64,000 nt of DNA, taken from the sequence record MW822008.1. One strand, 5' to 3'. Each line of letters begins with the position of its first letter. The first letter of the stretch is position 1. Source of the DNA: Escherichia phage BF17. A program made the translations under genes and the position numbers. Below are positions 1 through 64,000 of this stretch, in pieces. The notes under the pieces were generated by a model. The model saw only the letters and a list, made by a program, of their open reading frames with translations. It was not told where the DNA came from and searched no databases.

Positions 1-364
1 AGTAGGCAGAGGAAGTCTGCCGTACTTTTTAGTTTCCAAGCTCCTTTTCCATTTTTCAAATTACATCAAATGTAATCAAAAGTAATCACGCAATGATTAG
101 TACTGAATTATTACTTTCACCTTAATTTCAATTACCCTTTTACCCGTCGGGGTAAAATTCAATTACCCCTTGAGGCTCCAGAAAAAAGTTGGTTAGTACT
201 CCATCCTAAATCTCGATCCTAAAAATTTTGGAGTACCTATGAAATAAAAGTTGGATCTTCGAAAGTTGAAATTTACGTTGGGACGTTTATGATTTGTGGG
301 ATATAATGATGTTTGTAGACGGGTAGTTCTCAAGAATATCAGTACTGAATAATGAAAGAAAGTT

Positions 365-393
365 ATTGACATTATGATTCAGTACTGTATAAT
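365..393 (+). promoter_or_regulatory. sigma70-like promoter in leader region (TTGACA-17-TATAAT)
   Basis: TTGACA 365-370, TATAAT 388-393, AGTACTG immediately upstream of -10. Confidence 0.5.
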
Positions 394-584
394 GTTCTAC
401 ATAGCTTCAAGGGTGATGAGTTGCTGCGAACAATTCATTTACTCTACCTCCTGTCGTGAGACAGTACAGAAAAGATAGTTCCTCCTGTGGTGGTACATCT
501 TTTTGAACCTCATATGAAAATCGTAATAACAGTACTGATATTAACAGAATGGTGTCAGTACTGATTTTAATCTAAAGCATTATG

Positions 585-604
585 CCACCAGCACAAGCTG
601 GTGG
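585..604. other. Inverted Chi pair CCACCAGC-acaa-GCTGGTGG
   Basis: CCACCAGC 585-592 and GCTGGTGG 597-604 read directly. Confidence 0.6.
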
Positions 605-729
605 ATTCCCTCTAACAGTATTCAGTACTACATGATAGTCTTCATCCTCCTAGGGTAACATAGTGAGGGCTATGATGGCAGTACTGAATACTCCCTTTCA
701 AAAGATAGATCTATGGTATAGTACTGACG

Positions 730-920
730 GATTTTGGGCGTAGTTACCCTGGATGGATTTTGGACGTAGATATGTCTAGCCCTCCAGAAGTCTGGAAGTA
801 AAGATGGCTATCCATCTAGACGGCTAAACGGCTAGATTTCTGGATGGCTAGATGGCTAGACGTTTGGACGGCTAAACGGCTAGATGGTTACACGTCTGGA
901 AGTATAGACGGCTAAATCAA
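730..920. repeat. Iteron-like short direct repeats (GGCTA[GA]A[TC]GG x8; GTCTGGAAGTA x2; GGATTTTGGRCGTAG x2)
   Basis: direct repeats visible at 731-770 and 790-915; candidate origin or packaging region. Confidence 0.65.
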
Positions 921-1085
921 AATTTTATTTTGTTTTTCCAATAGTTCCCCTACCGCGTGGGGATAGTTTCCCCGCAGTATCTGGAGTTAGATTTTTCTGA
1001 ATCTGGAATCATTATCTTATAAACTGGGGGCAATGTCAACGACCTGGACGGATATTTTTAAAAATTTTTTCAGTACTGAATTTTG

Positions 1086-1330
1086 GGCGTAACTATGCAC
1101 CCGGTGGGCTTGAGTCTTTCTCGACTTGATGGAACTATTATACAGTACTGAAAAAATAAAGCAATACCCTGGAAGCAAAAAAGTTTTAATTAATTTGCTT
1201 GCTATCCTGGGCCGGACTATGGTACTATATTTCAGTACTGAGAAAGTGCGTTTACCTGCTAGGGTGCGGGAGTGTATCCTTTTTTTATATCTTGAATTTT
1301 GGGCGTAATTTCGCACCCTCTGGGGTTTCC
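1086..1330. promoter_or_regulatory. Promoter-like sites with conserved downstream CCCACCGGGTGCATA-type elements in both orientations
   Basis: minus-strand TATAAT-like with element at about 1093-1108; plus-strand AGGGTGCGGGAGTGTATCC 1261-1280 then T-run; minus element about 1300-1320. Confidence 0.45.
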
Positions 1331-1673
1331 GCTTTCTCGCGTCTATGTAGTAATTATACGCTTTTTCAGGATCAAGTCAATACCTAAAAACAAAATAATT
1401 GAAAATAATTTAACGCGTTTAAACGGCCCGTAAAGCCCTGGAATGATTGGAATGGTGCAAATGTATAGCTTATGTGTATTAATGCGTTAGAATGCGTCTG
1501 AGGCCGTTTTACGGGGTATGGGGATGATTTGGTGGATTGATTCAGTACTGAATAATAGTACTACTATATAGAAAGATAGTTCCCCTGGATGGTTGCAGTA
1601 CTGAATGATAGTACTGAATAATAGTTCCCCTATATAGAAAGAAAACTATTTTAAAAGTATTTGTAGAAAGTAC

Positions 1674-1701
1674 TTGCAAACTAAGTTTAACGGCGTATAA
1701 T
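1674..1701 (+). promoter_or_regulatory. sigma70 promoter (TTGCAA-16-TATAAT) with 5' stem-loop
   Basis: TTGCAA 1674-1679, TATAAT 1696-1701; hairpin AGCGGGAAcactTTCCCGCT about 1714-1733. Confidence 0.7.
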
Positions 1702-1756
1702 GTTTTACATCGAGAGCGGGAACACTTCCCGCTACATATTACGAGAGATTAAAACG

Positions 1757-2119
1757 ATGGCGACTCAAATCACTAAAATTATTGCTAACCTGGTTAACTT
1801 TCGCGACGAGATGAAAGATCTTCCGGCAGAAACGGTAAAAATTCACATTTCAGCTTATCGGGAACTTATTGCAATGTTACCGCTTAAGCGTGAACAATAC
1901 GCCGCGACCGTGATGCTTGATGCGATGATCCATAAGATGATCGCCAGTGATTTAACGATGGTTTATCAGTATATGGGCGAAAATTTCGCGGTGTATAGTA
2001 AACCAGTACCAGGAATGGAAAGTACAGAAGTATTACACGGTTTAAATTTAAAACAAGATGCATGGGATAATATGCCTCGTTTCCTGGTATGGGCTGACAG
2101 TGGCAAAATTTACGAATAA
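1757..2119 (+). CDS. hypothetical protein (120 aa)
   Basis: internal ATG 1757 of ORF 1700; track start lies in promoter -10; promoter + stem-loop upstream. Confidence 0.7.
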   Translation: MATQITKIIANLVNFRDEMKDLPAETVKIHISAYRELIAMLPLKREQYAATVMLDAMIHKMIASDLTMVYQYMGENFAVYSKPVPGMESTEVLHGLNLKQDAWDNMPRFLVWADSGKIYE

Positions 2120-2133
2120 GTTTAATAAAGTAC

Positions 2134-2161
2134 TTGCAAACTAAGTTTAAAAGCGTATAAT
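2134..2161 (+). promoter_or_regulatory. sigma70 promoter with 5' stem-loop
   Basis: TTGCAA 2134-2139, TATAAT 2156-2161, hairpin GTGGGGAAtagtTCCCCAC 2173-2191. Confidence 0.7.
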
Positions 2162-2213
2162 ACTTTACATCAGGTGGGGAATAGTTCCCCACTATAATTA
2201 AGAGATTAATTTT

Positions 2214-2447
2214 ATGAGTACTATTTTAACTGTTTCTCAATCCGTTGCACTGACTGACCTATTAAACGCTTTAAGCCGTTGCACTGAGGTTGGCTTGTTT
2301 GATGTGGTTGACGTTGCACCGGACGTTATTAATCATTTTTGTGATGCGATGGAAGAATGTAAGGAAGATGATAGCCGTATGATGGCGGTCGCCTTTGAGG
2401 AAGTACAGCCGGGTGAGATCAAAGGTTTACCAGTACTGAAAAAATAG
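2214..2447 (+). CDS. hypothetical protein (77 aa)
   Basis: ORF track; promoter + stem-loop upstream; weak AAGAG RBS. Confidence 0.7.
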   Translation: MSTILTVSQSVALTDLLNALSRCTEVGLFDVVDVAPDVINHFCDAMEECKEDDSRMMAVAFEEVQPGEIKGLPVLKK

Positions 2448-2450
2448 TAC

Positions 2451-2478
2451 TTGCAAACTAAGTTTAAAAGCGTATAAT
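2451..2478 (+). promoter_or_regulatory. sigma70 promoter with 5' stem-loop
   Basis: TTGCAA 2451-2456, TATAAT 2473-2478. Confidence 0.7.
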
Positions 2479-2529
2479 ACTTTCTATCAGGTGGTGAATA
2501 GTTCCCCACTATATAAGAGGATTAAAAAA

Positions 2530-2769
2530 ATGGCTAAATCAAAAATGTTCTTAGGTCACAAAAACAAAACTCATTGGAATGTAAGCCTTTGGATTAATAA
2601 CGATGAGTCATTGTACCGGTTGGCCCAGGACTTTATTAATGATAGCACTAATCGCAATGATGCGGCCCGTCATATGATGCTATTTTTAGAACAGACTGGA
2701 CAAGATAAAACACCGGACGGATTCAAATATAGCACTACTGCGATCCGTGCGGCGATGGTTGGAATGTAA
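2530..2769 (+). CDS. hypothetical protein (79 aa); paralog of 4570..4809
   Basis: ATG 2530 with RBS AAGAGGA; shares HKNKT(H/Q)WNVSLWINN...TPDGFKYSTTAIRAAMVGM with 4570 gene. Confidence 0.75.
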   Translation: MAKSKMFLGHKNKTHWNVSLWINNDESLYRLAQDFINDSTNRNDAARHMMLFLEQTGQDKTPDGFKYSTTAIRAAMVGM

Positions 2770-2782
2770 TAGAATTTATTTA

Positions 2783-2819
2783 AAGTACTATCATTTTTTT
2801 GCGATAGTACTTTATAATA
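2783..2819 (+). promoter_or_regulatory. Promoter with palindromic operator-like site AAGTACTATC...GATAGTACTT
   Basis: inverted repeat 2783-2792 / 2803-2812 followed by TATAAT 2814-2819. Confidence 0.55.
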
Positions 2820-2855
2820 GTGTTTTATTCATACACCAACGATAAGGGTAACAGC

Positions 2856-3122
2856 ATGAATATTAAGTATTTTGCGACGCGTGAACAAGCTCGGATCGCC
2901 GCACGCCAGGACGGGGCAACGTTTAAAGATATGGGAGCGGGATCGGCAAGTGGTGAACGTTGGGCCATTGTAAAGCGTAGTACCGCCAGATCATTACAGT
3001 ACTGGTTAGCGGCGTTAAAAAGTCCCGATAGTGTATCGCGTCGAGTGGTAGAAATAAAGCTCGACCGAAAGGGCAACCGCGTGACCGTGTACCGTACTAA
3101 AAAGATTGCAGTACTTGAATAA
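2856..3122 (+). CDS. hypothetical protein (88 aa); paralog of 15228..15623
   Basis: ATG 2856; shares FATREQARIAAR...FKDMG...RKGNRVTVY with 15228 gene. Confidence 0.75.
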   Translation: MNIKYFATREQARIAARQDGATFKDMGAGSASGERWAIVKRSTARSLQYWLAALKSPDSVSRRVVEIKLDRKGNRVTVYRTKKIAVLE

Positions 3123-3129
3123 AAAGTAC

Positions 3130-3157
3130 TTGCAAACTATGTTTAATGGCGTATAAT
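3130..3157 (+). promoter_or_regulatory. sigma70 promoter with 5' stem-loop
   Basis: TTGCAA 3130-3135, TATAAT 3152-3157, hairpin AGCGGGAAcactTCCCGCC. Confidence 0.7.
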
Positions 3158-3209
3158 GTTTTACATCGAGAGCGGGAACACTTCCCGCCTATAACCTGGA
3201 GTAATAAAA

Positions 3210-3440
3210 ATGACTAATATGTATATGACTGAAGTTAAAACCGTAAAAGATACTACCACGAATAAAACTACTTACTTACAGCGGATCTGCGGTGTATGGC
3301 AACGTATCAGCAAATCAAAGTACTTTAAATTAACATCATATGCAAACCGTTCGGATTCATTCAGTACTGAAATAAAAGGTAATAAAGTACACCAATACGG
3401 CACTTATTATTATTATAGCCTGGACGCGATTGCAGTATAA
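3210..3440 (+). CDS. hypothetical protein (76 aa)
   Basis: ORF track; RBS GGAG 3198-3201. Confidence 0.7.
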   Translation: MTNMYMTEVKTVKDTTTNKTTYLQRICGVWQRISKSKYFKLTSYANRSDSFSTEIKGNKVHQYGTYYYYSLDAIAV

Positions 3441-3470
3441 GCAGTTTACAAATCTTTACAATTGCCGGTA

Positions 3471-3550
3471 TTGACTTATTTTGTCAGTACTGGCATAATG
3501 TATTCATTGGCAGATAAGCCGTAGCCCATAGGGTGCGGGAGTGTATCTAT
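3471..3550 (+). promoter_or_regulatory. Promoter (TTGACT-17-CATAAT) plus conserved transcribed element GCCCATAGGGTGCGGGAGTGTATC
   Basis: TTGACT 3471-3476, CATAAT 3494-3499, element about 3524-3550; no ORF downstream. Confidence 0.55.
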
Positions 3551-3563
3551 AGAAAAAGTAGTT

Positions 3564-3643
3564 TATTACAGTTACAATTGTGCACCCGGTGGGTTAGCTG
3601 TTGTCATGGGGTATATTATGCCAGTACTTGATAATGCTGTCAA
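3564..3643 (-). promoter_or_regulatory. Convergent minus-strand promoter (TTGACA-17-CATAAT) plus conserved element ACCCACCGGGTGCACAA
   Basis: minus-strand -35 at 3638-3643, -10 at 3615-3620, element about 3575-3595; faces the 3471 promoter. Confidence 0.55.
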
Positions 3644-3688
3644 TACTTTTTTTACTATTCAGTACTGAAAACTATTTTTAAAAAGTAC

Positions 3689-3716
3689 TTGCAAACTATG
3701 TTTAAAGGCGTATAAT
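3689..3716 (+). promoter_or_regulatory. sigma70 promoter P1 upstream of structured leader
   Basis: TTGCAA 3689-3694, TATAAT 3711-3716. Confidence 0.65.
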
Positions 3717-3721
3717 GTTTT

Positions 3722-3806
3722 ACATCAGGACGGGGAACGAAATAAGTAACTCCCCGTTAAGTAGCCCAGGAGTAAGGCACACGAAAAACTCCCCTGATAA
3801 AATAGT
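3722..3806 (+). ncRNA. Conserved structured leader / candidate small RNA between tandem promoters (copy 1)
   Basis: about 85% identical to 14031-14114; hairpin CGGGGA...TCCCCG with compensatory change in copy 2. Confidence 0.4.
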
Positions 3807-3834
3807 TTGACAAATGTTTTTAAAAGCGTATAAT
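3807..3834 (+). promoter_or_regulatory. sigma70 promoter P2 (TTGACA-16-TATAAT)
   Basis: TTGACA 3807-3812, TATAAT 3829-3834. Confidence 0.65.
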
Positions 3835-3866
3835 ACTTACATCAACTACTGAATGAGGGTTACAAA

Positions 3867-4478
3867 ATGAAAACTATCACTACTACTACTTTCGTTATGG
3901 ATTTTTCTGAATTGAACGCAGAACAAAAAACGTCAGCTATCGAACTGGTTCGGGAACGTGAAAAAAACTTAAACGATGATTATTTTTCTGAAAGTGAAAT
4001 TGAATACTATAAAGAAACAGTACTACCGGAATATGGCATTAATGACGCTGATTTACGTTTCAGTGGCTTTTGGTCCCAGGGTGACGGTGCATCAATCAGT
4101 ACTGACCACGTTGACGCAGTGAAGTTTTTACGCAAGGTAAGAGCATTAACTAAGTATCGCTCAATCCGTCACTTGCTGAATGAAGATGATTTGGCGATGA
4201 GTGTAAAGCGTTCTCACTCCCACTACTCGCATGAAAACACTGTAAGCGGGTACATTGAATCGGCTTACACTGATTTAACCGCAAAACAAGAAACGTTAGT
4301 TAATGAGCTTGAGGAACTACTCACTGAAACTATTCGTGAATTATCCCGCAAGTTGTACCGTGATTTAGAGAATGCATATGAGGATCAATTCACTACTGAA
4401 AACATTACGGCACTGATTGAGGGTAACGAATATCAATTCAATGTTATTGATGGCGTAGTAGAATCAATCGAATATTAA
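3867..4478 (+). CDS. hypothetical acidic protein (203 aa)
   Basis: ORF track; RBS GAGGG; largest module-1 ORF after the kinase-like gene. Confidence 0.75.
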   Translation: MKTITTTTFVMDFSELNAEQKTSAIELVREREKNLNDDYFSESEIEYYKETVLPEYGINDADLRFSGFWSQGDGASISTDHVDAVKFLRKVRALTKYRSIRHLLNEDDLAMSVKRSHSHYSHENTVSGYIESAYTDLTAKQETLVNELEELLTETIRELSRKLYRDLENAYEDQFTTENITALIEGNEYQFNVIDGVVESIEY

Positions 4479-4491
4479 TTTAAAAAAGTAC

Positions 4492-4519
4492 TTGCAAACT
4501 AAGTTTAAAAGCGTATAAT
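4492..4519 (+). promoter_or_regulatory. sigma70 promoter with 5' stem-loop
   Basis: TTGCAA 4492-4497, TATAAT 4514-4519, hairpin GCGGGGAgtggTTCCCCGC. Confidence 0.7.
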
Positions 4520-4569
4520 ACTTTATATCGAGGCGGGGAGTGGTTCCCCGCTCAAACGAGGATTTAAAA

Positions 4570-4809
4570 ATGGCTAGTTCTAAAACTTACAACGGGCACA
4601 AAAACAAAACTCAATGGAATGTAAGCCTTTGGATTAATAACGGTGAGTCATTGTATCGGCTTGCACAAAGTTGTATCGCACAAAGTAGAACTAAAGATAT
4701 TGCAGCGGAATGTATGTACCGCAGATTAAAAGCCAACGGTACTACTACAACGCCGGACGGTTTTAAGTATAGCACTACTGCGATCCGTGCTGCAATGGTT
4801 GGAATGTAA
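4570..4809 (+). CDS. hypothetical protein (79 aa); paralog of 2530..2769
   Basis: ATG 4570, RBS GAGGA. Confidence 0.75.
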   Translation: MASSKTYNGHKNKTQWNVSLWINNGESLYRLAQSCIAQSRTKDIAAECMYRRLKANGTTTTPDGFKYSTTAIRAAMVGM

Positions 4810-4866
4810 TATTCAGTACTGAGATAATGGCGGGTAATAGTTCCCGCCTTTACTGAGGGTTATCTA

Positions 4867-5127
4867 ATGAGTAAAGTAATAAAGTACAATGTGTTAAGCA
4901 AATCATTGTCTATCAGTGAATGCACCGATGGTTTTTGGATGTACGATGAAACGCGTGGCATGAATTTAGCTATGCGTGCAAAAACTGCTGAGGCGGCGTA
5001 TATTCAAGCACTGGAATACTACCAGGAACGTTTAAAGGAAGTAGAAGAAGATTATAAAAGCCTCAAAGCGAAAGTAGATCATTTCGTCGGTCAATTCATC
5101 GAGGAAGACGACGACAAACAATATTGA
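4867..5127 (+). CDS. hypothetical protein (86 aa)
   Basis: ORF track; RBS GAGGG; upstream stem-loop GGCGGGtaatagttCCCGCC. Confidence 0.7.
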   Translation: MSKVIKYNVLSKSLSISECTDGFWMYDETRGMNLAMRAKTAEAAYIQALEYYQERLKEVEEDYKSLKAKVDHFVGQFIEEDDDKQY

Positions 5128-5135
5128 AAAAGTAC

Positions 5136-5163
5136 TTGCAATTAGTTTTCAGTACTGTATAAT
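5136..5163 (+). promoter_or_regulatory. sigma70 promoter with 5' stem-loop
   Basis: TTGCAA 5136-5141, TATAAT 5158-5163, hairpin GGGAGAAatggTTCTCCC. Confidence 0.7.
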
Positions 5164-5213
5164 GGTTTACATCAAAGGGAGAAATGGTTCTCCCTGGTAA
5201 TGAGGAAAATAAA

Positions 5214-5435
5214 ATGGCTAATATCACTACTCTTTCCCAACTGGAAGCACTGGTTAAATCTATGCGGGAACATGCCGACAAAATCGGCGTACAAGATCCA
5301 GCCGTTTGCTTCTGCGACGAATTGAATGATGATACCCTGGTAATAGCAGAAGTCCAGGACGTTTCTAACTATTCATCGCGTTACACTGGCGGCGTAGCAA
5401 ATAAAGGTGACTTCTGTTTATACCTTACAAAATAA
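5214..5435 (+). CDS. hypothetical protein (73 aa)
   Basis: ATG 5214, RBS GAGG 5202-5205. Confidence 0.75.
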   Translation: MANITTLSQLEALVKSMREHADKIGVQDPAVCFCDELNDDTLVIAEVQDVSNYSSRYTGGVANKGDFCLYLTK

Positions 5436-5438
5436 CAA

Positions 5439-5471
5439 CGCGGGGAGATAATAACTCCCCGTTACTTTTTC
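5439..5471 (+). terminator. Rho-independent terminator
   Basis: hairpin CGGGGAGataataaCTCCCCG followed by T-run. Confidence 0.7.
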
Positions 5472-5502
5472 AGTACTGAATCATTTAATAGACGGATCTA
5501 TG

Positions 5503-5573
5503 CACCCGGTGGGTTAGTGACTGTTTCGTCTTGATGTAGTAATTATGCCAGTACTGGATGCACTTGTCAACAA
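5503..5573 (-). promoter_or_regulatory. Minus-strand promoter (TTGACA-17-CATAAT) plus conserved ACCCACCGGGTGCATAG element
   Basis: -35 at 5568-5573, -10 at 5545-5550, element about 5503-5518; no minus-strand ORF. Confidence 0.5.
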
Positions 5574-5603
5574 CTATTTTTCAAATACTTTTTATTAAAA
5601 TAC

Positions 5604-5631
5604 TTGCAATTAGTTTTTAAACGCGTATAAT
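5604..5631 (+). promoter_or_regulatory. sigma70 promoter with 5' stem-loop
   Basis: TTGCAA 5604-5609, TATAAT 5626-5631. Confidence 0.7.
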
Positions 5632-5678
5632 GTTTTGCATAGGGGGAGCGGTTCCCCTGGTAACTAAGGAATAATAAA

Positions 5679-5915
5679 ATGCTTGAACAAATCAAATCAA
5701 CGTCTTCGAATGTAACGGGAACGGTAGCACACTTTACTAGTGATGAATCGCGGGGCGTTCCCTATTGTGCTGTACATGTAAACACTGAGGGTAACTACTG
5801 GTTTACGGTTTACGGATCATATTCATTTGGACGGCCAGGGCATCAAAAAATTCTGGATAAAGTACAACCAACGGGTAAAAATATCACTGCTGAAATGTTT
5901 TATAAAAAATCATAA
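5679..5915 (+). CDS. hypothetical protein (78 aa)
   Basis: ORF track; RBS AAGGA. Confidence 0.75.
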   Translation: MLEQIKSTSSNVTGTVAHFTSDESRGVPYCAVHVNTEGNYWFTVYGSYSFGRPGHQKILDKVQPTGKNITAEMFYKKS

Positions 5916-5920
5916 AGTAC

Positions 5921-5948
5921 TTGATAATAGTTTTTAGTACTGTATAAT
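5921..5948 (+). promoter_or_regulatory. sigma70 promoter with 5' stem-loop
   Basis: TTGATA 5921-5926, TATAAT 5943-5948, hairpin GGGGGAGCGGTTCCCCC. Confidence 0.65.
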
Positions 5949-5999
5949 ATTTTACATCGCAAGGGGGAGCGGTTCCCCCTGGTAACTAAGGATAATCAA

Positions 6000-6299
6000 A
6001 TGAAAATTGCAATCATCGCCCTGGCTTTATCTGTTTCCTCTTTCGCTGTTAATGCGTCATTAGATGTAAGTAGTGAAAAATTCATTCAGTGCACTGTTGC
6101 AATGACCGATGAAAGTACTGGCGAGATTGTTTTAAAGGATTTAGAGATCCAGCCGGAAGCATTTAAAAACGGGCCGTTCCATGAAGAAGACGAAAAAGGT
6201 AGCACGACAATTTATTACGATGCAAGTACTAAACGCGGTTCGGTCACTGTTATGGATACTGAGAAAGTAACTCATACTGGCGTTATTAATTGCCGTTGA
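6000..6299 (+). CDS. secreted/periplasmic hypothetical protein (99 aa) with N-terminal signal peptide
   Basis: MKIAIIALALSVSSFAVNA-S: hydrophobic core plus AxA-like cleavage site. Confidence 0.75.
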   Translation: MKIAIIALALSVSSFAVNASLDVSSEKFIQCTVAMTDESTGEIVLKDLEIQPEAFKNGPFHEEDEKGSTTIYYDASTKRGSVTVMDTEKVTHTGVINCR

Positions 6300-6320
6300 T
6301 ATATACTACGGGGTAACATC

Positions 6321-6551: not shown

Positions 6552-6555
6552 GTAC

Positions 6556-6586
6556 ATAGCCCACCTGGTGGGCTTTTTTGTTTTTG
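6556..6586 (+). terminator. Rho-independent terminator
   Basis: hairpin AGCCCACCtGGTGGGCT then TTTTTTG. Confidence 0.7.
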
Positions 6587-6633
6587 TAGTATCGTAGTAC
6601 TGAGATACTTTGAAAATAGTTTTAAAAAAGTAG

Positions 6634-57568: not shown

Positions 57569-57584
57569 ATCTGGAGGATTTGGT

Positions 57585-57878
57585 ATGGATACTAAATTCA
57601 AAATTATTTTTAAAACTAAGCCGTATATTCCACATACAGCAGAACGTTTTATACCACATGGTGCTGAGGAAATTATTCACCAAGATGGTACTAAGTTATA
57701 CCTTGTTCCTTGTTCTTATGAACGTGCAGTAGAAATGTTACTAATGAATGCTAGACTATGCAAAAACAAGTACATTAGTTACCTATACAATGAACATATT
57801 TTAGATTTCAATGATGAAAATATGTTCATTCTAGCAATCGAGGATTTTGATAACTGGTACAATATTATTAAAATCTAA
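57585..57878 (+). CDS. hypothetical protein (97 aa)
   Basis: RBS GGAGGA. Confidence 0.7.
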   Translation: MDTKFKIIFKTKPYIPHTAERFIPHGAEEIIHQDGTKLYLVPCSYERAVEMLLMNARLCKNKYISYLYNEHILDFNDENMFILAIEDFDNWYNIIKI

Positions 57879-57888
57879 TGAAAATAAT

Positions 57889-57935
57889 GTGAACATATTA
57901 GATTCTTGTGATATAATGTTCACATCTTTTTTTGA
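57889..57935 (+). promoter_or_regulatory. Inverted repeat GTGAACAT...ATGTTCAC with T-run, enclosing extended -10 promoter motif GATTCTTGTGATATAAT
   Basis: TATAAT 57913-57918; same motif as 44868-44885. Confidence 0.55.
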
Positions 57936-57949
57936 TAACGGAGATATAG

Positions 57950-58336
57950 ATGAATACAAGTTCAATCCTAAAAGCAATTGGTGGTGTTTTACTCATTGAA
58001 GTAAAAGGTGAGCCAAAGCTATGCTGTTTAGAAGATATGAAGAATACAAAACACTTCAGTACTGGTCAGATTTTCAATGCCATTCGTATTCTAAATGACA
58101 AATCCATTGCTGATTATGGAAAAGTTTGGCCTGTATATCAAAATGCTGATGGTGATATCAGTACTGATTGGAAAACAATTGAGGCGGTACGACAAAGTTG
58201 TGAGAGTGATTGGGACTTCATTGTTGAAGTTTGTGATCAACTACAAGAAGATGTTCCAGAAATTGTCGAACGAAAAGAAGTCCTAGCACGACTTGAAAAA
58301 TTCCGTCACGGAACACTACAGTATAACACAATCTAA
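57950..58336 (+). CDS. hypothetical protein (128 aa)
   Basis: ORF track; RBS GGAG. Confidence 0.7.
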   Translation: MNTSSILKAIGGVLLIEVKGEPKLCCLEDMKNTKHFSTGQIFNAIRILNDKSIADYGKVWPVYQNADGDISTDWKTIEAVRQSCESDWDFIVEVCDQLQEDVPEIVERKEVLARLEKFRHGTLQYNTI

Positions 58337-58385
58337 TCTGCTTATTAAAAATATCTAATTAACATTATATAAAAGGAATTTAAAA

Positions 58386-58691
58386 ATGGAAGACAATGGA
58401 ATGAAATTTGATATGTTTGAAGGTGTACCAGAGTTCGATTTCAACAAACTTGAAGAAGGTGAGGAATCAGAACTAGTCAGTGTTACACTTAAAGCAGATT
58501 CTAAGAAGAAATATTCATCAGCAGTACGTTCACGTTCACAAGAAGAATACGAAACATTTATTGAAAGTATTCATTATGAAACATTCCATCATGCAGATGG
58601 AACTCCATATGAAGTACGTGTAACAGTACTGAAGCCTGAAGTAAATCCAATGGAAAATCTACGTCCTGTTTACTGCTGGGCAAGTCACTAA
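58386..58691 (+). CDS. hypothetical acidic protein (101 aa)
   Basis: RBS AAAGGAA. Confidence 0.7.
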   Translation: MEDNGMKFDMFEGVPEFDFNKLEEGEESELVSVTLKADSKKKYSSAVRSRSQEEYETFIESIHYETFHHADGTPYEVRVTVLKPEVNPMENLRPVYCWASH

Positions 58692-58696
58692 TAAAC

Positions 58697-58733
58697 CAAA
58701 GGACGGGATTTGTTATCTCGTCCTTTTTTTGTC
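58697..58733 (+). terminator. Rho-independent terminator
   Basis: hairpin AAAGGACGggatttgttatctCGTCCTTT then TTTTTT. Confidence 0.7.
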
Positions 58734-58742
58734 TGGAGATGT

Positions 58743-59597
58743 ATGAAACTTTATCTAATCGTTGACTACAATAAGGATTATGCTGGTAACTTCACCGAAG
58801 ATTCGGATGGATATTGCACATCGACTAATGTCAATGTACGTAGCAGTAGTGCTCATGAACATGAATCTTGTAAAAATCTAAAAGATTTTATCGCATACCG
58901 AGCATTTGAAAAGAACTTCTGCCGCAGTAGATATTCGAAGTTTGAGTACCCGTTAATTGATGTTCCTGATGATTTAATGTTCCAGTTAATGCTAACTGGA
59001 GTTCAAGATTATGATTACATAGCATATAATCATATTACTAAGAAAATTTATATTGGTACATCATCACATGACACTTCTATGTATGCATCATGCCCAGATG
59101 ATCGAATGAATGATAGAAAATCATACTATAGTGGATCAGTTGGTTTAAATGATTCATTAAATGAAAATTTATTCTTTGAGTATGTTTATGATTACCATCA
59201 TGAGAAAAAAGAACGTGAAGATTACTGTATAGCAATTGATAGTACTAATGGGTATGAAGACGTGAAAGAAGCACTTATGCCGTACATTATTGAAAAGTAC
59301 TACAAAGATTTTCAGTACTGTAGTAATTTTCTAATCAGAAATTCTATTATAATCGGTCGCCAATCTAGTGCATACTCTCAGTACTATAATGATTCACCAG
59401 TAGCATCGGCAAATGAAATGTGTGATATTTTACAAATTCCACGTGAAGATATGGCATTCATTTTTACATCTTTTATTGAAGATGATGAGTTGTATATTAA
59501 AAATAAACACCGTTTCATGCCAAGCAAGATTGAGGTTATTCGAAGTTTTAGTGTTGATATACTAACAAATTTCACAGAAAAAACCGAATATAACTGA
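58743..59597 (+). CDS. hypothetical protein (284 aa)
   Basis: ATG 58743 with RBS GGAG; track start 58710 lies in terminator. Confidence 0.7.
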   Translation: MKLYLIVDYNKDYAGNFTEDSDGYCTSTNVNVRSSSAHEHESCKNLKDFIAYRAFEKNFCRSRYSKFEYPLIDVPDDLMFQLMLTGVQDYDYIAYNHITKKIYIGTSSHDTSMYASCPDDRMNDRKSYYSGSVGLNDSLNENLFFEYVYDYHHEKKEREDYCIAIDSTNGYEDVKEALMPYIIEKYYKDFQYCSNFLIRNSIIIGRQSSAYSQYYNDSPVASANEMCDILQIPREDMAFIFTSFIEDDELYIKNKHRFMPSKIEVIRSFSVDILTNFTEKTEYN

Positions 59598-59625
59598 GAC
59601 AAATGATAAGTTAATGATATAATAT

Positions 59626-59661
59626 AAGGTGACAACATAATATGTTAGTCACCTTTTTTTA
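59626..59661 (+). terminator. Rho-independent terminator
   Basis: hairpin AGGTGACaacataatatgttAGTCACCT then TTTTTTT. Confidence 0.75.
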
Positions 59662-60200
59662 ATCCTGAAAGGTTCCCATAAGGAAATGATTAAAAGCCTA
59701 ATCCACTCGAAAATGTAGAGGGTAGATGAGTAGTCCTTTCAGTACGAACAGCAGATGAAACCCGTTAGATGATGGCATAGTTTGAACCACTCACGGCAAT
59801 GCGGCTGTATAAAGAACTCCAATAGGATAAAGAGAGTTCCTCGATAGACATATAAGGATCGCACCTTACCAATTATCTAAGGGAGATTTCATAAGAAATA
59901 TGCGGTCGGAATTATACAATATAGTTGCGTCCAAATTTTGTGAAATCAAATACAAGTACTGGTCATATGGTATTTGTATTATGTGTCGGGATGTTTAAGA
60001 CCGACGACCGTTGCTACAAGAACCGCGATAGAGAGAAACAGAGCAACCCGCTTTCGTCTCGTAAGAGAATTCGTGATATGAACTATGTGAAGGCCACCAG
60101 CGTCAAACTTTTTTGTTCTTTCCCCTGCGGGGGGGATGAAATATGCTCAAGCAAACCCCGTCAATATTAATTAAAAGAAAATAGTACTTGTAGAATTAGA
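59662..60200. other. ORF-poor, relatively GC-rich intergenic region; candidate structured RNA or replication/recombination site
   Basis: no ORF with RBS; long-range complementary segments (GACGACCGTTGC / GCAACCCGCTTTCGTC); CCACCAGC 60094-60101; CCCCTGCGGGGGGG hairpin. Confidence 0.35.
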
Positions 60201-60279
60201 CATGCGTAGCATGGTAATTCTACTGATGTTGATGAAATCAACGTCACGTATATTCATTGATGTTTCCATAGGAATAATG

Positions 60280-60822
60280 ATGGCATTTATTAGAAAAGAA
60301 AAAACTGTTACTTATAAAACTTTGAATTTTGATGATTGCATTAATCAATCACAAGACGAAGATATCTTTACTGGATATGTGGTTATTAAAGAAAAAGGAT
60401 GCATTTCTTATATAAAGGAATTGCAAAATGGAATTGAAGTGACTTCAGTTAAATTACTTCCTACTCAAAAACCAACAATATCAAAAGCCCAGTATGGTAA
60501 TTATTTTGAAGAAAGATATAGTAATAATTCAATAAGTGTTAAGGCTCATATTATTAAAGGAGAACTAGAAGGAGAATATAGAAAATACAACCCACAAGGA
60601 AAATGTGTTTGGGTTAAATACTTCAATTCAGGATATGATGTAACATCTGAAATTATAGAGTTCTTAGGTTTAAAATGTACCCCTGAGACTATTCACGATT
60701 ATAAGTTCAATACTGAAGAAGAGTTTAATCTGATGATGCGTTACGGTTCACATTTTAAATTTTTATATGAATATAACATTGACAGTAGTACTTTTGATAA
60801 GATAGTACACAACTGTCTCTAA
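60280..60822 (+). CDS. hypothetical protein (about 180 aa)
   Basis: ATG 60280 (or 60277) with RBS AGGA; track start 60202 lacks RBS. Confidence 0.6.
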   Translation: MAFIRKEKTVTYKTLNFDDCINQSQDEDIFTGYVVIKEKGCISYIKELQNGIEVTSVKLLPTQKPTISKAQYGNYFEERYSNNSISVKAHIIKGELEGEYRKYNPQGKCVWVKYFNSGYDVTSEIIEFLGLKCTPETIHDYKFNTEEEFNLMMRYGSHFKFLYEYNIDSSTFDKIVHNCL

Positions 60823-60838
60823 CAAAAGGAATTATATA

Positions 60839-61360
60839 ATGTCGAAGAAGGATGCTTCGAAAAAACATTCAGTACATTTTAGTACTGGAAAAGATAACTG
60901 GACAACTCCAAAGGATTTCTTTGAAGATTTGGATGAACTCTGGGAATTTACACTAGATGCAGCATGTGTCAAAGAAACTGCATTGTGTGATAATTTTTTC
61001 ACTCCAGAAGATGATTCACTGTCACAGGATTGGGGAAATAATATAGTTTGGTTGAATCCACCATATAGTGACTTGAAAACTTGGTTATCTAAAGCAGTAG
61101 ATGCATATAATAACGGGGCAACTGTAGTTATTCTTGTACCCTCAAGAACCGATACAATTGCTTTTCAGGATTATGCTGCTAAAATATGTGATTGTATTTG
61201 TTTTATTAAGGGAAGATTGAGATTTGGTATACCAGAAGAACCCGATAAGAAAACAGATTCAGCACCATTTCCTTCGTGTCTGATAGTACTGGATAAGTAC
61301 TTAACCACTGCTAAAATCAATTATCTTAAATCTCTTGGGTTGGTGATGAAGAATTTATGA
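60839..61360 (+). CDS. phage Dam-family DNA N6-adenine methyltransferase (173 aa)
   Basis: WTTPKDFF...LDAAC...WLNPPYS: NPPY catalytic motif plus overall pattern of the small phage Dam family; RBS AAAGGAA. Confidence 0.75.
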   Translation: MSKKDASKKHSVHFSTGKDNWTTPKDFFEDLDELWEFTLDAACVKETALCDNFFTPEDDSLSQDWGNNIVWLNPPYSDLKTWLSKAVDAYNNGATVVILVPSRTDTIAFQDYAAKICDCICFIKGRLRFGIPEEPDKKTDSAPFPSCLIVLDKYLTTAKINYLKSLGLVMKNL

Positions 61361-61890
61361 AAGAAACATGCGTATTAACTTTTGGACGTGTTAATCCCGT
61401 ACATCGTGGACATGGTTTAGTTTTTGAAAAGGCCAAAACATTACAAGAACAGTACAATGCTGATTTAAAAATATATCTAAGCACCAGTACTGACAATATA
61501 AAAAACCCACTCCCACCTGAACTAAAAATGTATTATACAGAGGGATTCTATCCTTCAGTGCAAGAGAACATCTACACAGAAGACAATCTATTTGATATAA
61601 TGAGAGAACTGGATGGAAAGTACTTAGATGTTCTTTTCATATGTGGTTCTGACCGTATTGATTCTTTTCAAAAAACTCTTGACATGTACAATGGTAAGTT
61701 GTATAATTTTTGTAGTATAAAAGCAATTCAAGCAGGTATTGACCGTAATGTAAGTCAATATAGCTCAACACAAATGCGTAACTTCGCAAAAAATGAAGAT
61801 TTTGATAGTTTTCGTGAGTTTTTACCTGGAAATGACGAGGACTTAAAAATACAATTATTTGAAGACGTTATAAAATACATGAGGAAATAA
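61357..61890 (+). CDS. nucleotidyltransferase with HxGH motif, NMN adenylyltransferase-like (177 aa)
   Basis: N-terminal TFGRVNPVHRGH matches the G(R/K)FxPxHxGH signature of NadM/NadR-type adenylyltransferases; ATGA overlap with methyltransferase gene. Confidence 0.55.
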   Translation: MKETCVLTFGRVNPVHRGHGLVFEKAKTLQEQYNADLKIYLSTSTDNIKNPLPPELKMYYTEGFYPSVQENIYTEDNLFDIMRELDGKYLDVLFICGSDRIDSFQKTLDMYNGKLYNFCSIKAIQAGIDRNVSQYSSTQMRNFAKNEDFDSFREFLPGNDEDLKIQLFEDVIKYMRK

Positions 61891-61892
61891 TT

Positions 61893-62186
61893 ATGTCAGT
61901 ACTGTTCAAAACCAATCCAGTACTTTGGGATCAAAATGAGCAATCAGGATTTCGTTCCATCCATGTTGAATACAAAGGTAATACTGTAGTTGCAATTATT
62001 GCTAACAAAACTCTAGGAAACTGGACTGCACAGGTTGTTCCTATGGGATATTCTTACACATCTGATGAGGTTCAATTCCTGGCTGAACTATATCGTCAAG
62101 TGCCGTTTATCATTAATGTACTAGAAGGTAATGATACATTATCACATGCAGATGTGATTAATTTTCTTGGAAACTTGCATGTGTGA
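61893..62186 (+). CDS. hypothetical protein (97 aa)
   Basis: RBS GAGGAAA. Confidence 0.7.
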   Translation: MSVLFKTNPVLWDQNEQSGFRSIHVEYKGNTVVAIIANKTLGNWTAQVVPMGYSYTSDEVQFLAELYRQVPFIINVLEGNDTLSHADVINFLGNLHV

Positions 62187-62466
62187 TGAAATAAATCTTA
62201 CAGGATATTTTTTACAAGAATCAATGATTAAATTTAGTGATAAATTTTCAGTACTGGATGGTATCGAAATGTGGCATGTCAAACCACTGTTCCACACTTT
62301 CAGTAAAGAGCACAAAATGTTATTGACTGAAGCCAGTAAATCAAATAACATATGTGAAATCAAAATTGGTGTAAATGTCTATAAAGGGATGGTTATCTTT
62401 TTTGACAATAACAGCAACTACTTTTATATTGTTAAGGAGCATTACGTTGACAAATACAAATACTAA
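62179..62466 (+). CDS. hypothetical protein (95 aa)
   Basis: ATG 62179; track start 62167 is TTG. Confidence 0.6.
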   Translation: MCDEINLTGYFLQESMIKFSDKFSVLDGIEMWHVKPLFHTFSKEHKMLLTEASKSNNICEIKIGVNVYKGMVIFFDNNSNYFYIVKEHYVDKYKY

Positions 62467-63067
62467 TACATATTTCCGTTATCTTCGATTAGGTCTTTCC
62501 CTACGTCCGATCCGTGGAAAGTGCGATTCACTCGCTGACCTTGACTATGCATATGCATTACATCATGAAGGTGTACAGTATGTATTGGGTGATTATGGTG
62601 AATTTGAAGAAACAAATGACAGTACTGGAATTAATGCTGGTGTAGAAAATCTTAACAACATTGCTAACAGTTCTCGCCATGACATTGTGTTACAGATTCA
62701 AAACTTTATTGAGCAACACACAGGCAAACGTGTTTGGTGCTATGTCGGTACTGATGCACAAATGTCAATTTCATTCGGTAACGATGAAGGATATGTTGCA
62801 CAGCTTATTATGGATTTTGAATCTGAAGAGAAGTTTTTAGAATTCAAAGAAAAGATTATTCAGTCACTTGTTGATATGGGTATCCCCGAAGATAAAATGC
62901 CAGAAGTTCAAAACATTGATGAATTTGTTTTGATTCCATCTGATGAGAAATATGATGCAATGTTTACTGCTCTTAATATTCCAGGAGTTATTGTGGAGTA
63001 CTTTGATGATGGTGATGATAGTATCTATATCGATCTAGATGACGATGACGATGACGACGATGAATAA
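62447..63067 (+). CDS. hypothetical acidic protein with poly-Asp C-terminal tail
   Basis: TTG 62447 preceded by RBS AAGGAG 62434-62439 (start uncertain; track gives 62375); C-terminus DLDDDDDDDDE. Confidence 0.5.
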   Translation: MTNTNTNTYFRYLRLGLSLRPIRGKCDSLADLDYAYALHHEGVQYVLGDYGEFEETNDSTGINAGVENLNNIANSSRHDIVLQIQNFIEQHTGKRVWCYVGTDAQMSISFGNDEGYVAQLIMDFESEEKFLEFKEKIIQSLVDMGIPEDKMPEVQNIDEFVLIPSDEKYDAMFTALNIPGVIVEYFDDGDDSIYIDLDDDDDDDDE

Positions 63068-63073
63068 TGTACA

Positions 63074-63102
63074 TAGCCCGACATAAGTTCGGGCTATTTT
63101 TG
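63074..63102 (+). terminator. Rho-independent terminator
   Basis: hairpin AGCCCGAcataagtTCGGGCT then ATTTTTG. Confidence 0.75.
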
Positions 63103-63113
63103 TAAGGGGATAT

Positions 63114-63389
63114 ATGAATTATAAAGTTCTACAATATACATACAGTGTTTTGTTTGATTTACATCACAATGGAAGATATCTCAATACAATACGAGAAAAC
63201 ACATTCACTCATACTATCTGGATTAATCACTTAATAATGATACGTGAATATTTTGTTAATAGTGAGATAATCATTCGTGGTAAAAAACAGAAGATAGAAC
63301 AAGTTAATAGTTTTGGTGGTAAATTAGTACTATCATTTATAGATAGTAATACTAATGAAAGATATAGTATAGATTTGGTGGACATATGA
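63114..63389 (+). CDS. family C paralog (MNYKVLQYTYSVLFDL...)
   Basis: RBS AAGGGGA; N-terminal motif shared with following genes. Confidence 0.65.
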   Translation: MNYKVLQYTYSVLFDLHHNGRYLNTIRENTFTHTIWINHLIMIREYFVNSEIIIRGKKQKIEQVNSFGGKLVLSFIDSNTNERYSIDLVDI

Positions 63390-63652
63390 ATTATAAAGAT
63401 TTCCTACTAACATACAAGATTATTCGAGATTTAGCACACGACAATGATAGCCCTAGTCTAGAAGACACATGCACTGAAATGATTCATACGATTCGTGGTA
63501 AGATTAAAAAAAAATTCAGTACTGTTATTATTGGTGATGACCATGCAGAATTTTCTGATATAATCATTAGACGTGATGGTAAAGTTGAGGTTCAGTACTA
63601 CACTGATTTTGGATTTACCAGTATTCCGTTGGAGATATTCCCTTGGGATTAA
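63386..63652 (+). CDS. family C paralog (MNYKDFLLTYKIIRDL...)
   Basis: ATGA overlap. Confidence 0.65.
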   Translation: MNYKDFLLTYKIIRDLAHDNDSPSLEDTCTEMIHTIRGKIKKKFSTVIIGDDHAEFSDIIIRRDGKVEVQYYTDFGFTSIPLEIFPWD

Positions 63653-63954
63653 ATTTAAATGATATACAATTCACTTATAAGATCCTATATGATTTGTATG
63701 ATGTATACCTTGTTAGTAACAACATAGGTTCACATAACCGATCCAAAGAACAACCATTTATTGATTTATATATTGAGTACTTAGATTCAGTAGGTGAATA
63801 TATAAAAAAGAATTACAGTACTTTTATCGATGGAAATGATAAATTCGATTTCTATGGTGTACAATCATATAATGGTATAATCCATGTTCAATTTCAGGAA
63901 ATAACCGATAGGGGATTTATCGAGATTAAAGTTGTGAAGTTGGTGAATTTATAA
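63643..63954 (+). CDS. family C paralog (LNDIQFTYKILYDL...)
   Basis: ORF track. Confidence 0.6.
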   Translation: MGLNLNDIQFTYKILYDLYDVYLVSNNIGSHNRSKEQPFIDLYIEYLDSVGEYIKKNYSTFIDGNDKFDFYGVQSYNGIIHVQFQEITDRGFIEIKVVKLVNL

Positions 63955-63964
63955 GAGGTTACAT

Positions 63965-64000
63965 ATGTTATTAAATGATATACAATTCACATACAAATTT
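63965..64000 (+). CDS. family C paralog, 5' partial (MLLNDIQFTYKF...), runs off window
   Basis: ATG 63965 with RBS AGAGG; same N-terminal motif. Confidence 0.5.
   Translation, partial: MLLNDIQFTYKF

Follow-up and report, generated by a model that had tools for sequence, protein, structure and literature searches.

In a 64,000-nucleotide stretch of DNA from Escherichia phage BF17 (sequence record MW822008.1; the whole stretch is called the window below), we found that the palindrome AGTACT is iterated far beyond what base composition or codon usage predicts. The same excess, together with a loss of the word GCGC, recurs in other enteric jumbo phages and in an unrelated lineage of prophages. 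We tentatively propose, giving it rather less than an even chance, that AGTACT is a selected recognition word for a two-fold-symmetric DNA reader and marks phage DNA as self.

1..64000, no strand assigned: palindrome AGTACT in 252 iterated copies, preferentially as C-AGTACT-G; 63 copies read CAGTACTG

AGTACT exceeds every composition and codon model

By megablast the window belongs to Asteriusvirus, the 121Q / PBECO4 / slurp01 / phAPEC6-type jumbo coliphages of ~350-380 kb, with 94-98% identity to CRJP21 and others. A sequence-only reading of this DNA had noticed AGTACT by eye, at more than 100 copies where about 20 were expected, and the excess proves stronger than it stated: the 252 copies compare with 21 expected from mononucleotide composition and 17, 44 and 98 from Markov models of order 1, 2 and 3. 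AGTACT ranks first among hexamers by z-score in every one of these models, including order 3, and its extensions CAGTAC and GTACTG come next; the 63 copies of the octamer CAGTACTG compare with 0.49 ± 0.77 in dinucleotide shuffles. The signal is also kept under the codon shuffle that the reading had proposed as a check. Open reading frames (ORFs) in the window, called by a simple longest-ORF heuristic, hold 173 copies versus 47.8 ± 6.6 after shuffling of synonymous codons (3.6x, z = 19). All three codon phases are occupied on plus-strand ORFs (62/51/40), and non-ORF DNA is twice as dense in the word as ORFs are (6.8/kb vs 3.3/kb).

The flanks of AGTACT are symmetric, with C at -1 in 43-45% of sites and G at +1 in 46-51%, and the least favoured flanking bases are G at -1 (10% of sites) and C at +1 (6%). 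Past these two positions we detected no sequence information around the sites genome-wide. In the 346-kb CRJP21 genome AGTACT occurs 893 times against 99 expected and the octamer 185 times against 4.3; the exact word is therefore enriched 9x versus only 1-2.4x for its one-mismatch variants, which points to recognition as sharp as that of a restriction/modification enzyme. Each CRJP21 region (early, structural and replication genes, right arm) lies 3.3-4.1x above its codon shuffles (z = 15-20), and every 5-kb bin has at least 5 sites except in two blocks described below. Densities run from ~6.5/kb in both terminal-repeat copies through 3-4/kb in the early arms to 1.5-2/kb in the structural and replication genes. 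Because the ratio to the codon shuffle is nearly constant, the pressure seems to be the same everywhere, and what the coding sequence permits seems to limit the density reached. The sites are spaced near-randomly, slightly more evenly than Poisson (coefficient of variation 0.78-0.90), which rules out a regular spacing of the sites.

A protein motif or paralogy fails as the cause, since the word falls in all codon phases and in diverse peptides and the excess is equal in single-copy late genes; that cause holds only for the TGTACT copies of one gene array, block A below. The sequence-only reading had seen AGTACT overlap a conserved FQYS motif in the arrays; we find no support for array coding sequence carrying AGTACT by way of a protein motif. 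The FQYS sequence TTTCAGTACAGC holds AGTACA instead, and only 2 of the 47 AGTACA copies at 28.4-36.7 kb encode FQYS, with phases mixed. No Rfam family matched in the window.

Two AGTACT-free blocks and a one-stranded variant

Paralog arrays occupy 20-56 kb of the window and include two stretches free of AGTACT (20454-25721 and 28375-36672; 5.3 and 8.3 kb) that are unique in the whole genome, where the next gap is 2.3 kb.

20455..25720, + strand: block A, a 5.3-kb array of ~21 paralogous ~70-aa genes without AGTACT
25721..28375, + strand: island between the blocks, 17 AGTACT
28376..36671, + strand: block B, 8.3 kb; 0 AGTACT, 47 AGTACA (C-AGTACA-G), 0 TGTACT
36672..64000, + strand: paralog arrays and early genes, 100 AGTACT (3.7/kb); ORFs hold 90 vs 24.2 in codon shuffles, z = 15.4

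The absence of AGTACT from block A is at background level (0 vs a codon-shuffle expectation of 1.7), and its 11 TGTACT copies mostly encode a paralog peptide motif, xAVLx. Block B is specific to Asteriusvirus. Its AGTACA copies all lie on the plus strand, with the canonical C and G flanks, in phases 17/14/16 and in diverse peptide contexts; its ORFs hold 45 versus 14.2 ± 2.9 in codon shuffles (~3x), and tandem (AGTAC)n runs occur at 31468-78, 32778-93, 32998-33011 and 35592-602. The pattern is kept in CRJP21 (27.5-35 kb). A copy of block B in CMSTMSU, 80% identical, has 43 AGTACA, 0 AGTACT and 0 TGTACT, with 22 of 42 aligned sites kept in place, and a copy in ph0011, 75% identical, has 27, 5 and 0. 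Since copies at 75-80% identity keep AGTACA with turnover, the one-strand variant is itself maintained by selection on number. Weaker analogues exist in Munch, where one 2.5-kb bin has 1 AGTACT and 11 AGTACA, and in Yen9-04. We rejected recent duplication as the origin of the AGTACT-free blocks, given the weak paralogy within block B and its upkeep across 20-25% divergence.

The word is kept in number across enteric jumbo phages

To place the excess we list AGTACT counts in pieces of other phage genomes and in host DNA, as observed / expected.

RaK2 (Klebsiella), sampled piece: 119 / 12
GAP32 (Cronobacter), sampled piece: 253 / 14
fHe-Yen9-04 (Yersinia; Yen9-04 for short), sampled piece: 215 / 14
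Munch (Salmonella), sampled piece: 205 / 15
PA5oct (Pseudomonas), sampled piece: 1 / 8.8
XacN1 (Xanthomonas), sampled piece: 0 / 5.1
Atu_ph07 (Agrobacterium), sampled piece: 1 / 3.6
T4, sampled piece: 8 / 4.4
T5, sampled piece: 5 / 5.7
rV5, sampled piece: 4 / 4.6
E. coli K-12, 150 kb: 10 / ~14.5

AGTACT is the top hexamer in RaK2, GAP32, fHe-Yen9-04 and Munch, whose genera have less than 30% average nucleotide identity to Asteriusvirus; with Asteriusvirus, five enteric genera share the enrichment. The enrichment was found neither in the non-enteric relatives PA5oct, XacN1 and Atu_ph07 nor in T4, T5 and rV5. Relative to E. coli, AGTACT is ~60-fold denser in the window, ~100-fold in the terminal repeat and ~40-fold in CRJP21 on average.

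Individual sites move. When reciprocal-best-hit orthologues were threaded codon by codon, about 20% of sites stood at the same aligned position in CRJP21 and RaK2, GAP32, Yen9-04 or Munch (13, 6, 11 and 6 shared) and ~80% did not, and despite this turnover all five phages hold 2-4 sites/kb. Over the short distance between the window and CRJP21 (96.3% identity), 94.8% of AGTACT sites are intact; the figure is 85.7% for hexamers overall and 87.2% for those at a distance of 8-30 bp. The pattern is that of many individually weak, collectively selected sites, like Chi, uptake signal sequences (USS) or the cyanobacterial word HIP1, with selection apparently acting on copy number and not on place. 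Three marks of a highly iterated palindrome, namely a genome-wide excess, occurrence in all phases and in non-coding DNA, and a clade trait under selection, are found for AGTACT.

GCGC is lost and Chi is enriched alongside AGTACT

The sequence-only reading had set out from the premise that phages deplete palindromes, and here this is strongly so. Palindromes that contain G and C are, AGTACT apart, nearly missing from the genome. About 30 of the 64 hexamer palindromes stand at 0-2 copies in 346 kb (observed/expected GGTACC 0/31, CCATGG 0/46, CTGCAG 0/35), and GCGC is absent altogether (0 vs 42 expected in the window; 0 vs 177 in 346 kb), a purge that makes the excess of AGTACT the more remarkable. 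At 9-15x enrichment, AGTACT does not behave as a restriction target under avoidance. All 14 AGTACT-enriched samples (the window, CRJP21, RaK2, GAP32, Yen9-04, Munch, four prophages and four further IMG/VR loci) have 0-1 GCGC where 4-177 are expected, versus none of the 9 non-enriched controls (an Atlantibacter prophage, PA5oct, XacN1, Atu_ph07, T4, T5, rV5, an Enterobacter chromosome flank and E. coli). In eight of these controls GCGC is near-normal (20/26 to 1072/1153 observed/expected), and in XacN1 it is partly depleted (53/120). E. coli DNA carries 7.1 GCGC/kb and 0.067 AGTACT/kb; with the phages AGTACT-rich and GCGC-free and E. coli the reverse, the two words tell phage from host DNA in opposite senses.

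The recombination word Chi (GCTGGTGG) is enriched as well, with 8 copies on the plus and 3 on the minus strand of the window versus 0.24 expected, 18 and 7 versus 1.5 in CRJP21, and a 10-40x excess in all RaK2-like phages sampled. Examples in the window lie at ~583-604 (CCACCAGC-N4-GCTGGTGG), ~6558-6574 and 7289-7309. Some Chi copies lie within terminator-like hairpins of the form AGCCCAC..GTGGGCT.

Ten enzymes have been reported to cut virion DNA of fEgEco12 as predicted in silico, in a set without ScaI, and there is therefore no sign of general base modification.

A prophage lineage carries the same word

We scanned IMG/VR for two copies of CAGTACTG within 4-34 bp and obtained at least 120 loci. 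Among the matches listed were RaK2-like contigs and 23 loci whose contigs measure ~11-35 kb, mostly 31-35 kb and in a single case 7.7 kb, and have a GC content of 0.40-0.44 and 3.6-5.6 AGTACT/kb. These define a second lineage whose genes include a lambda-like terminase large subunit (TerL), portal, tape measure, J-type fibre and a serine recombinase; megablast of its loci and of other AGTACT-dense IMG/VR loci against cultured phages gave no match. The TerL matches prophages of Leclercia sp., L. tamurae and Enterobacter bugandensis (90% identity) and, further off, of Escherichia sp. ESNIH1 (41%) and Atlantibacter subterraneus (45%). Two Leclercia prophages have 110 and 108 AGTACT per 22 kb and the Escherichia prophage 58. 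In Enterobacter, 41 copies in 14 kb of prophage are followed by 1 in 7 kb of chromosome, so that the enrichment stops at the junction. The Atlantibacter prophage, of the same GC content, has only 2 copies and shows neither AGTACT excess nor GCGC loss.

Flank preferences are sharper in this lineage (C 64%, G 61%; CAGTACTG 44 vs 0.44), and the word again falls in all codon phases at 3.5-4.4x over codon shuffles. By BLAST and 118 family hidden Markov models (HMMs), the lineage shares only a GH24 lysozyme with the complete jumbo genome. It is an uncultured, lambda-like temperate siphovirus lineage of ~33 kb and GC content 0.41 with a serine integrase, unusually AT-rich for hosts of GC content 0.55. 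Separately, a 929-aa protein of CRJP21 (107460-110249) has 50% identity over 952 residues to a protein of the Escherichia sp. ESNIH1 prophage and is probably a horizontally exchanged receptor-binding protein.

The terminal repeat and its promoters

Position 1 of the window coincides with position 1 of five records that start at the physical left end (vB_Ec-M-J, CRJP21, fEgEco12, ELP-22 and E9.1). Mapped or annotated direct terminal repeats (DTRs) of its relatives span 1-21525 in the vB_Ec-M-J record, 20,993 bp in fEgEco12 and 20,668 bp in Sharanji (PhageTerm and restriction mapping), and in CRJP21 we find a DTR of ~20,152 bp whose second copy begins at 346,150 of 366,301. By homology to these repeats we take 1 to ~20.45 kb of the window as its left terminal repeat; after it come the arrays of small genes specific to the genus and, beyond them, conserved early genes.

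1..20454, + strand: left direct terminal repeat, ~45 small genes, each with its own promoter; boundary set by homology
320..1690, no strand assigned: ORF-free left-end region with ~15 AGTACT sites, mostly TCAGTACTGA(A/T), and further repeat families
5131..5163, + strand: promoter in which both sites are embedded (5131 and 5151), AGTACTTGCAATTAGTTTTCAGTACTGTATAAT; -35 TTGCAA, -10 TATAAT
8022..8057, + strand: promoter of a second class, AGTACTATTGACATAGTTTGATAGTACTGGCATAAT; its sites lie on either side of the -35 element at a distance of 22 bp and take up the spacer

AGTACT reaches its maximal density in the terminal repeat (134-135 sites, 6.6/kb). The sequence-only reading had seen a concentration in the ORF-free DNA at 320-1640; that region is indeed dense, and so is the whole of 1-20.45 kb.

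A promoter scan of the repeat gave 109 promoter-like sites versus 67 ± 8 in shuffles; ten match perfectly (12/12). The strong promoters are of sigma-70 type, about one per small gene, each followed by a conserved 5' hairpin, and they group into a few near-identical families. As the sequence-only reading had observed, AGTACT sits at fixed positions in them: 28 of the 37 strong sigma-70-like promoters in 1-20.45 kb have an embedded copy. In 18 cases it starts at -7/-8 relative to the -10 hexamer (AGTACTGTATAAT / AGTACTGGCATAAT), where the final T gives a TG motif beside that hexamer (AGTAC-TGTATAAT, AGTAC-TGGCATAAT); in 10 it starts at -27 (AGTACTTGCAA) and its last T is the first T of the -35 hexamer (AGTAC-TTGCAA); in 5 it starts at -30/-31 (AGTACTATTGACA). 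A peak in AGTACT pair spacing at 20-24 bp follows from these fixed offsets. The class at 8022..8057 is seen again near 8314, 11132 and 18773. Ten strong promoters of the repeat lack the word, and the embedded sites are 35 of its ~134 (~26%), or ~14% of all sites in the window. AGTACT seems to have been fitted into what little free sequence these very tight intergenic regions leave, where a bound protein would overlap RNA polymerase contacts.

The repeat has further recurrent structures. Nearly all of its transcripts open with the conserved 5' hairpin (GGGGAGAAnnGTTCTCCCC or GCGGGAACACTTCCCGC), a few bases past the predicted start and before the Shine-Dalgarno sequence (for example at 2175-2195, 3170-3190, 10875-10895 and 13190-13215). 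A composite element occurs four times (10266-10301, 13872-13907, 17140-17175 and ~19100) as a hairpin with a 12-bp stem, AAAGGGATTGACTYCGGTCAGTCCCTTT, followed by GCTATTATAT; the stem includes a -35-like TTGACT, and the element looks like a terminator overlapping a promoter. Left-end repeats include AGTACTGAATAAT in 2.2 copies at 1597-1625 and a GGCTAGA/GGCTAAAC tandem array at 806-914. Within the ORF-free terminus (1-1690) there are also TTTTGGGCGTA..-type repeats near 735, 1083 and 1296, four copies of TAGTTCCCCT and a TCAAATGTAA repeat at 56-88; these repeat families may be packaging or end-recognition elements. Besides ~40 Asteriusvirus records, megablast of window positions 1-20000 matched 13 Campylobacter phage records and rV5-like phages (Phapecoctavirus, Justusliebigvirus).

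Candidate readers encoded in the window

The sequence-only reading had advised looking for a matching methyltransferase or DNA-binding protein. Family searches over 62 ORFs of the terminal repeat and 56-64 kb and over 88 array ORFs yielded a candidate of the former kind, and none with a recognisable DNA-binding family; the 88 array ORFs had no Pfam matches. Families related to nucleic acids were confined to the methyltransferase, the DksA/TraR zinc finger and the ParE-like domain listed here.

60839..61357, + strand: Dam-family N6-adenine DNA methyltransferase with an NPPY motif (PF05869, E = 2.3e-31)
60280..60822, + strand: conserved 180-aa protein encoded just upstream of the methyltransferase; Pfam and NCBIfam give no match
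61357..61887, + strand: cytidylyl/adenylyl-transferase-like gene downstream of the methyltransferase, weak matches to PF01467, PF06574, TIGR00482 and TIGR00125
12260..12517: DksA/TraR zinc-finger protein of the terminal repeat, conserved in other genera
15686..15940: ParE-like domain protein of the terminal repeat, conserved in other genera

The methyltransferase is the only DNA-modifying enzyme recognisable in the window and so a candidate reader or modifier of AGTACT. It matches TIGR01712 with E = 1.6e-25, under the curated cutoff, and we found no solved structural relative. In all three other enteric genera whose sampled piece includes the locus (Munch, Yen9-04 and GAP32) it is kept along with both neighbouring genes. 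The 180-aa protein was considered as a specificity partner or a nuclease and rejected: no family matches it, and its AlphaFold2 model, of low confidence (predicted local distance difference test score 55), has a region of beta-hairpin repeats and helices and no recognisable nuclease or helix-turn-helix fold. The ParE-like protein is possibly a gyrase-directed host take-over factor; its downstream 'antitoxin' was considered and dropped as a GTAC-binding Phd/YefM-type protein, since that neighbour is not conserved across genera and has no family match. Product names in the GenBank record of CRJP21 (OQ708376.1) look shifted or unreliable, as with a 300-bp 'terminase large subunit', and the label 'methylase' sits on the gene upstream of the true Dam-family gene.

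What might read AGTACT

The sequence-only reading had offered a binding site, a modification target or a promoter element. The general class of the first two stays the best reading, given the symmetric flanks, the sharp specificity and the density kept through turnover. Under our tentative proposal, selection would keep AGTACT, optimally as C-AGTACT-G, numerous genome-wide, at about 1 per 150 bp in the terminal repeat and 1 per 250-550 bp elsewhere, giving phage DNA a two-word sequence identity, AGTACT-rich and GCGC-free, with the host opposite. A sequence-specific two-fold-symmetric protein would read the word on double-stranded DNA and tell phage DNA from host DNA in a phage that has no base modification. 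The terminal repeat, densest in the word, would by analogy with T5 enter the cell first. There AGTACT abuts the -35 element of early promoters and fills the spacer; a bound reader would also occupy these promoters and would probably time or shut off early transcription. Because two unrelated lineages share the word, its flanks and GCGC loss and no detectable gene except the lysozyme, such a reader would either come from the host (Enterobacterales) or be a small phage protein that evolves fast. Its binding could be assayed on arrays of CAGTACTG, with CAGTACAG and scrambled arrays as comparison sequences. More broadly, and more doubtfully, enterobacterial phages with unmodified AT-rich DNA might use a self word code of many AGTACT, no GCGC and extra Chi, in which the AGTACT factor is maybe the host's, GCGC-containing DNA is degraded or ignored, and block B has been made half-readable.

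Several observations weigh against this proposal. The strand-specific variant in block B is not predicted by a purely symmetric double-strand reader. No helix-turn-helix or other recognisable DNA-binding family, and no reader, was found among the window-encoded ORFs, and no known E. coli protein with AGTACT specificity turned up. SlmA comes closest in its site GTGAGTACTCAC (GTGAGT|ACTCAC), in which G1, T2, A4 and G5 are required (PMC3020112). Its core AGTACT is the same, but the required G1, T2 and purine at 3 are absent and disfavoured in the phage, which prefers C; in 346 kb GTGAGTACTCAC occurs 0 times, GTNAGTACTNAC once and GAGTACTC at 4 of the 893 sites, and we rejected SlmA as the reader. 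Nor did a reader gene common to both lineages emerge, the BLAST and HMM comparison giving the GH24 lysozyme and, in one prophage, the 929-aa protein. Because the second lineage was found by searching for AGTACT, that it has this very word is in part a matter of ascertainment; its shared host order and GCGC loss are not. Most comparison genomes were sampled as 22-50 kb pieces. The LexA (SOS) box CTGT-N8-ACAG was discarded as a candidate, with 0 copies in the window and 1 in 346 kb.

Among the alternatives, we consider it unlikely that AGTACT is the site of a phage orphan methyltransferase (candidate 60839-61357) whose methyl mark serves as a signal, distinguishing old from new strands or injected from replicated DNA, as proposed for HIP1. 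Characterised members of the enzyme's family (T1, HP1 and VT-2 Dam) methylate GATC, and the BF17 enzyme lies under the TIGR01712 cutoff and has no solved relative; ~63 scanned ORFs of the second lineage include no methyltransferase, fEgEco12 virion DNA was cut as predicted by the ten enzymes, ScaI not among them, and methylation alone gives no reason for a 9-15x enrichment. On the other side stand the sharpness of specificity, of the restriction-modification type, the conserved three-gene cluster with its NPPY N6-adenine enzyme in Munch, fHe-Yen9-04 and GAP32, the risk that ~900 unprotected ScaI-type sites would pose to a palindrome-purging genome, and the link of orphan methyltransferases to HIP1 (PMC4390886). 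A Chi-like attenuator, by which AGTACT would modulate a host or phage DNA-translocating helicase-nuclease and spare word-rich DNA, has a small chance of being right. Density selected with turnover, an enrichment factor resembling that of Chi in E. coli, genuine Chi enriched 10-40x in the same phages and a GCGC loss that fits sorting of DNA by sequence content all agree with it. However, known Chi words are asymmetric, orientation-biased and enriched in the host chromosome, whereas AGTACT is palindromic and not enriched in host DNA (10 vs 14.5 in 150 kb of E. coli), and no candidate nuclease was identified. We give a similarly small chance to a strand-specific signal, in which the reading is of one strand, in the form of single-stranded DNA or of RNA (a priming site or RNA motif, for instance), and the palindrome places the signal on both. 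Its main evidence is the one-stranded word of block B, 47 AGTACA versus 0 TGTACT, with canonical flanks, maintenance with turnover over 20-25% divergence and weaker versions in Munch and Yen9-04; outside block B, however, the variants are balanced (289 AGTACV vs 287 BGTACT, where V is not T and B is not A), many sites lie upstream of transcription starts, and the two phage lineages differ in replication machinery.

That the word has no function, and is a side effect of biased mutation or repair or of the copying of promoter cassettes and paralog arrays, seems very improbable. The terminal-repeat promoters do fall into few near-identical families, paralog arrays do fill 20-56 kb, and the origin of HIP1 is likewise debated, but the excess is equal in single-copy late genes, in all phases and diverse contexts, words one mismatch away show no depletion, conservation is higher at the sites than in their flanks, and the trait is common to a virulent myovirus and a temperate siphovirus. 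Host-driven mutation bias was rejected, since neither host DNA nor the chromosome flank beside the prophage is enriched. Least probable of all, we judge, is that AGTACT is part of early sigma-70 promoters, whether UP-proximal or as an extended -10. The consensus of the proximal UP subsite is AAAAAARNR, which AAAAAGTAC fits; 28 of 37 terminal-repeat promoters have the word at fixed offsets, and its final T supplies a T of the -35 hexamer or of the TG motif. Against this, only ~14% of window sites are located in promoters and the offset varies by promoter class, ten strong promoters do without the word, there is no information past ±1, and late genes are enriched too, at the same 3.3-4x over codon shuffles. 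As the general explanation that the sequence-only reading had entertained, the promoter element is refuted; locally it may hold.

Comparison with known systems

We found no report of an AGTACT excess in the searchable literature. Iterated words of this kind, Chi, USS and HIP1 among them, are seldom found in genomes, and every one that has been understood has led to a DNA-handling machine. This one is carried by viruses and not by their host, in at least five jumbo phage genera and an unrelated prophage lineage, and in every case GCGC is lost completely. Should a reader exist, it would give a phage that does not modify its bases a novel means of keeping its DNA apart from that of the host, and would offer a handle on early-gene timing in poorly understood jumbo phages that are therapeutic candidates. 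In metagenomes, AGTACT-rich and GCGC-free DNA is a simple signature for recognising such phages and prophages.

Phages avoid restriction sites, and T7 carries its EcoP15I sites in a single orientation. The BF17 genome resembles these cases in its extreme palindrome avoidance, and the one-orientation variant of block B recalls strand-biased sites; it differs in that AGTACT is enriched and the block B variant itself stands ~3x over codon shuffles. SPO1, with TF1, and T4, with hydroxymethylcytosine, have phage DNA that is told from host DNA, and the early promoters of SPO1 lie in its terminal redundancy and are bound by a phage protein. The likeness is one of concept only: a phage-specific DNA property directs factors, and SPO1 clusters early promoters in a long terminal repeat. 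There, however, the mark is a modified base, whereas here it would be the word content of unmodified DNA, and no TF1-like protein was identified. SlmA, a two-fold-symmetric dimer of the enterobacterial host, has a site with an identical central AGTACT, but it needs G1, T2 and a purine at 3, where phage sites prefer C.

Chi (GCTGGTGG), USS and related DNA uptake sequences (DUS), and FtsK-orienting polar sequences (KOPS) share with AGTACT a density selected with turnover and a word that separates DNA populations, and Chi is co-enriched here. These words are asymmetric, oriented and host-enriched, whereas AGTACT is palindromic, not host-enriched and has no known reader. HIP1 (GCGATCGC) is a highly iterated palindrome of cyanobacteria whose function is still unknown (PMC5861425, PMC4390886), a long-open problem on which the AGTACT finding may shed light. 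Like HIP1, AGTACT is a short palindrome in many-fold excess across the genome, both within and outside coding sequence, under clade-wide selection and of sharp, restriction-modification-like specificity. It is not HIP1 proper, and CGATCG occurs once in 346 kb. AGTACT is another word (6-8 bp, with an AT-rich core) without a demonstrated cognate methyltransferase; it is borne by viruses and not hosts, is coupled to complete GCGC loss, and occurs in two unrelated phage lineages with a common host order.

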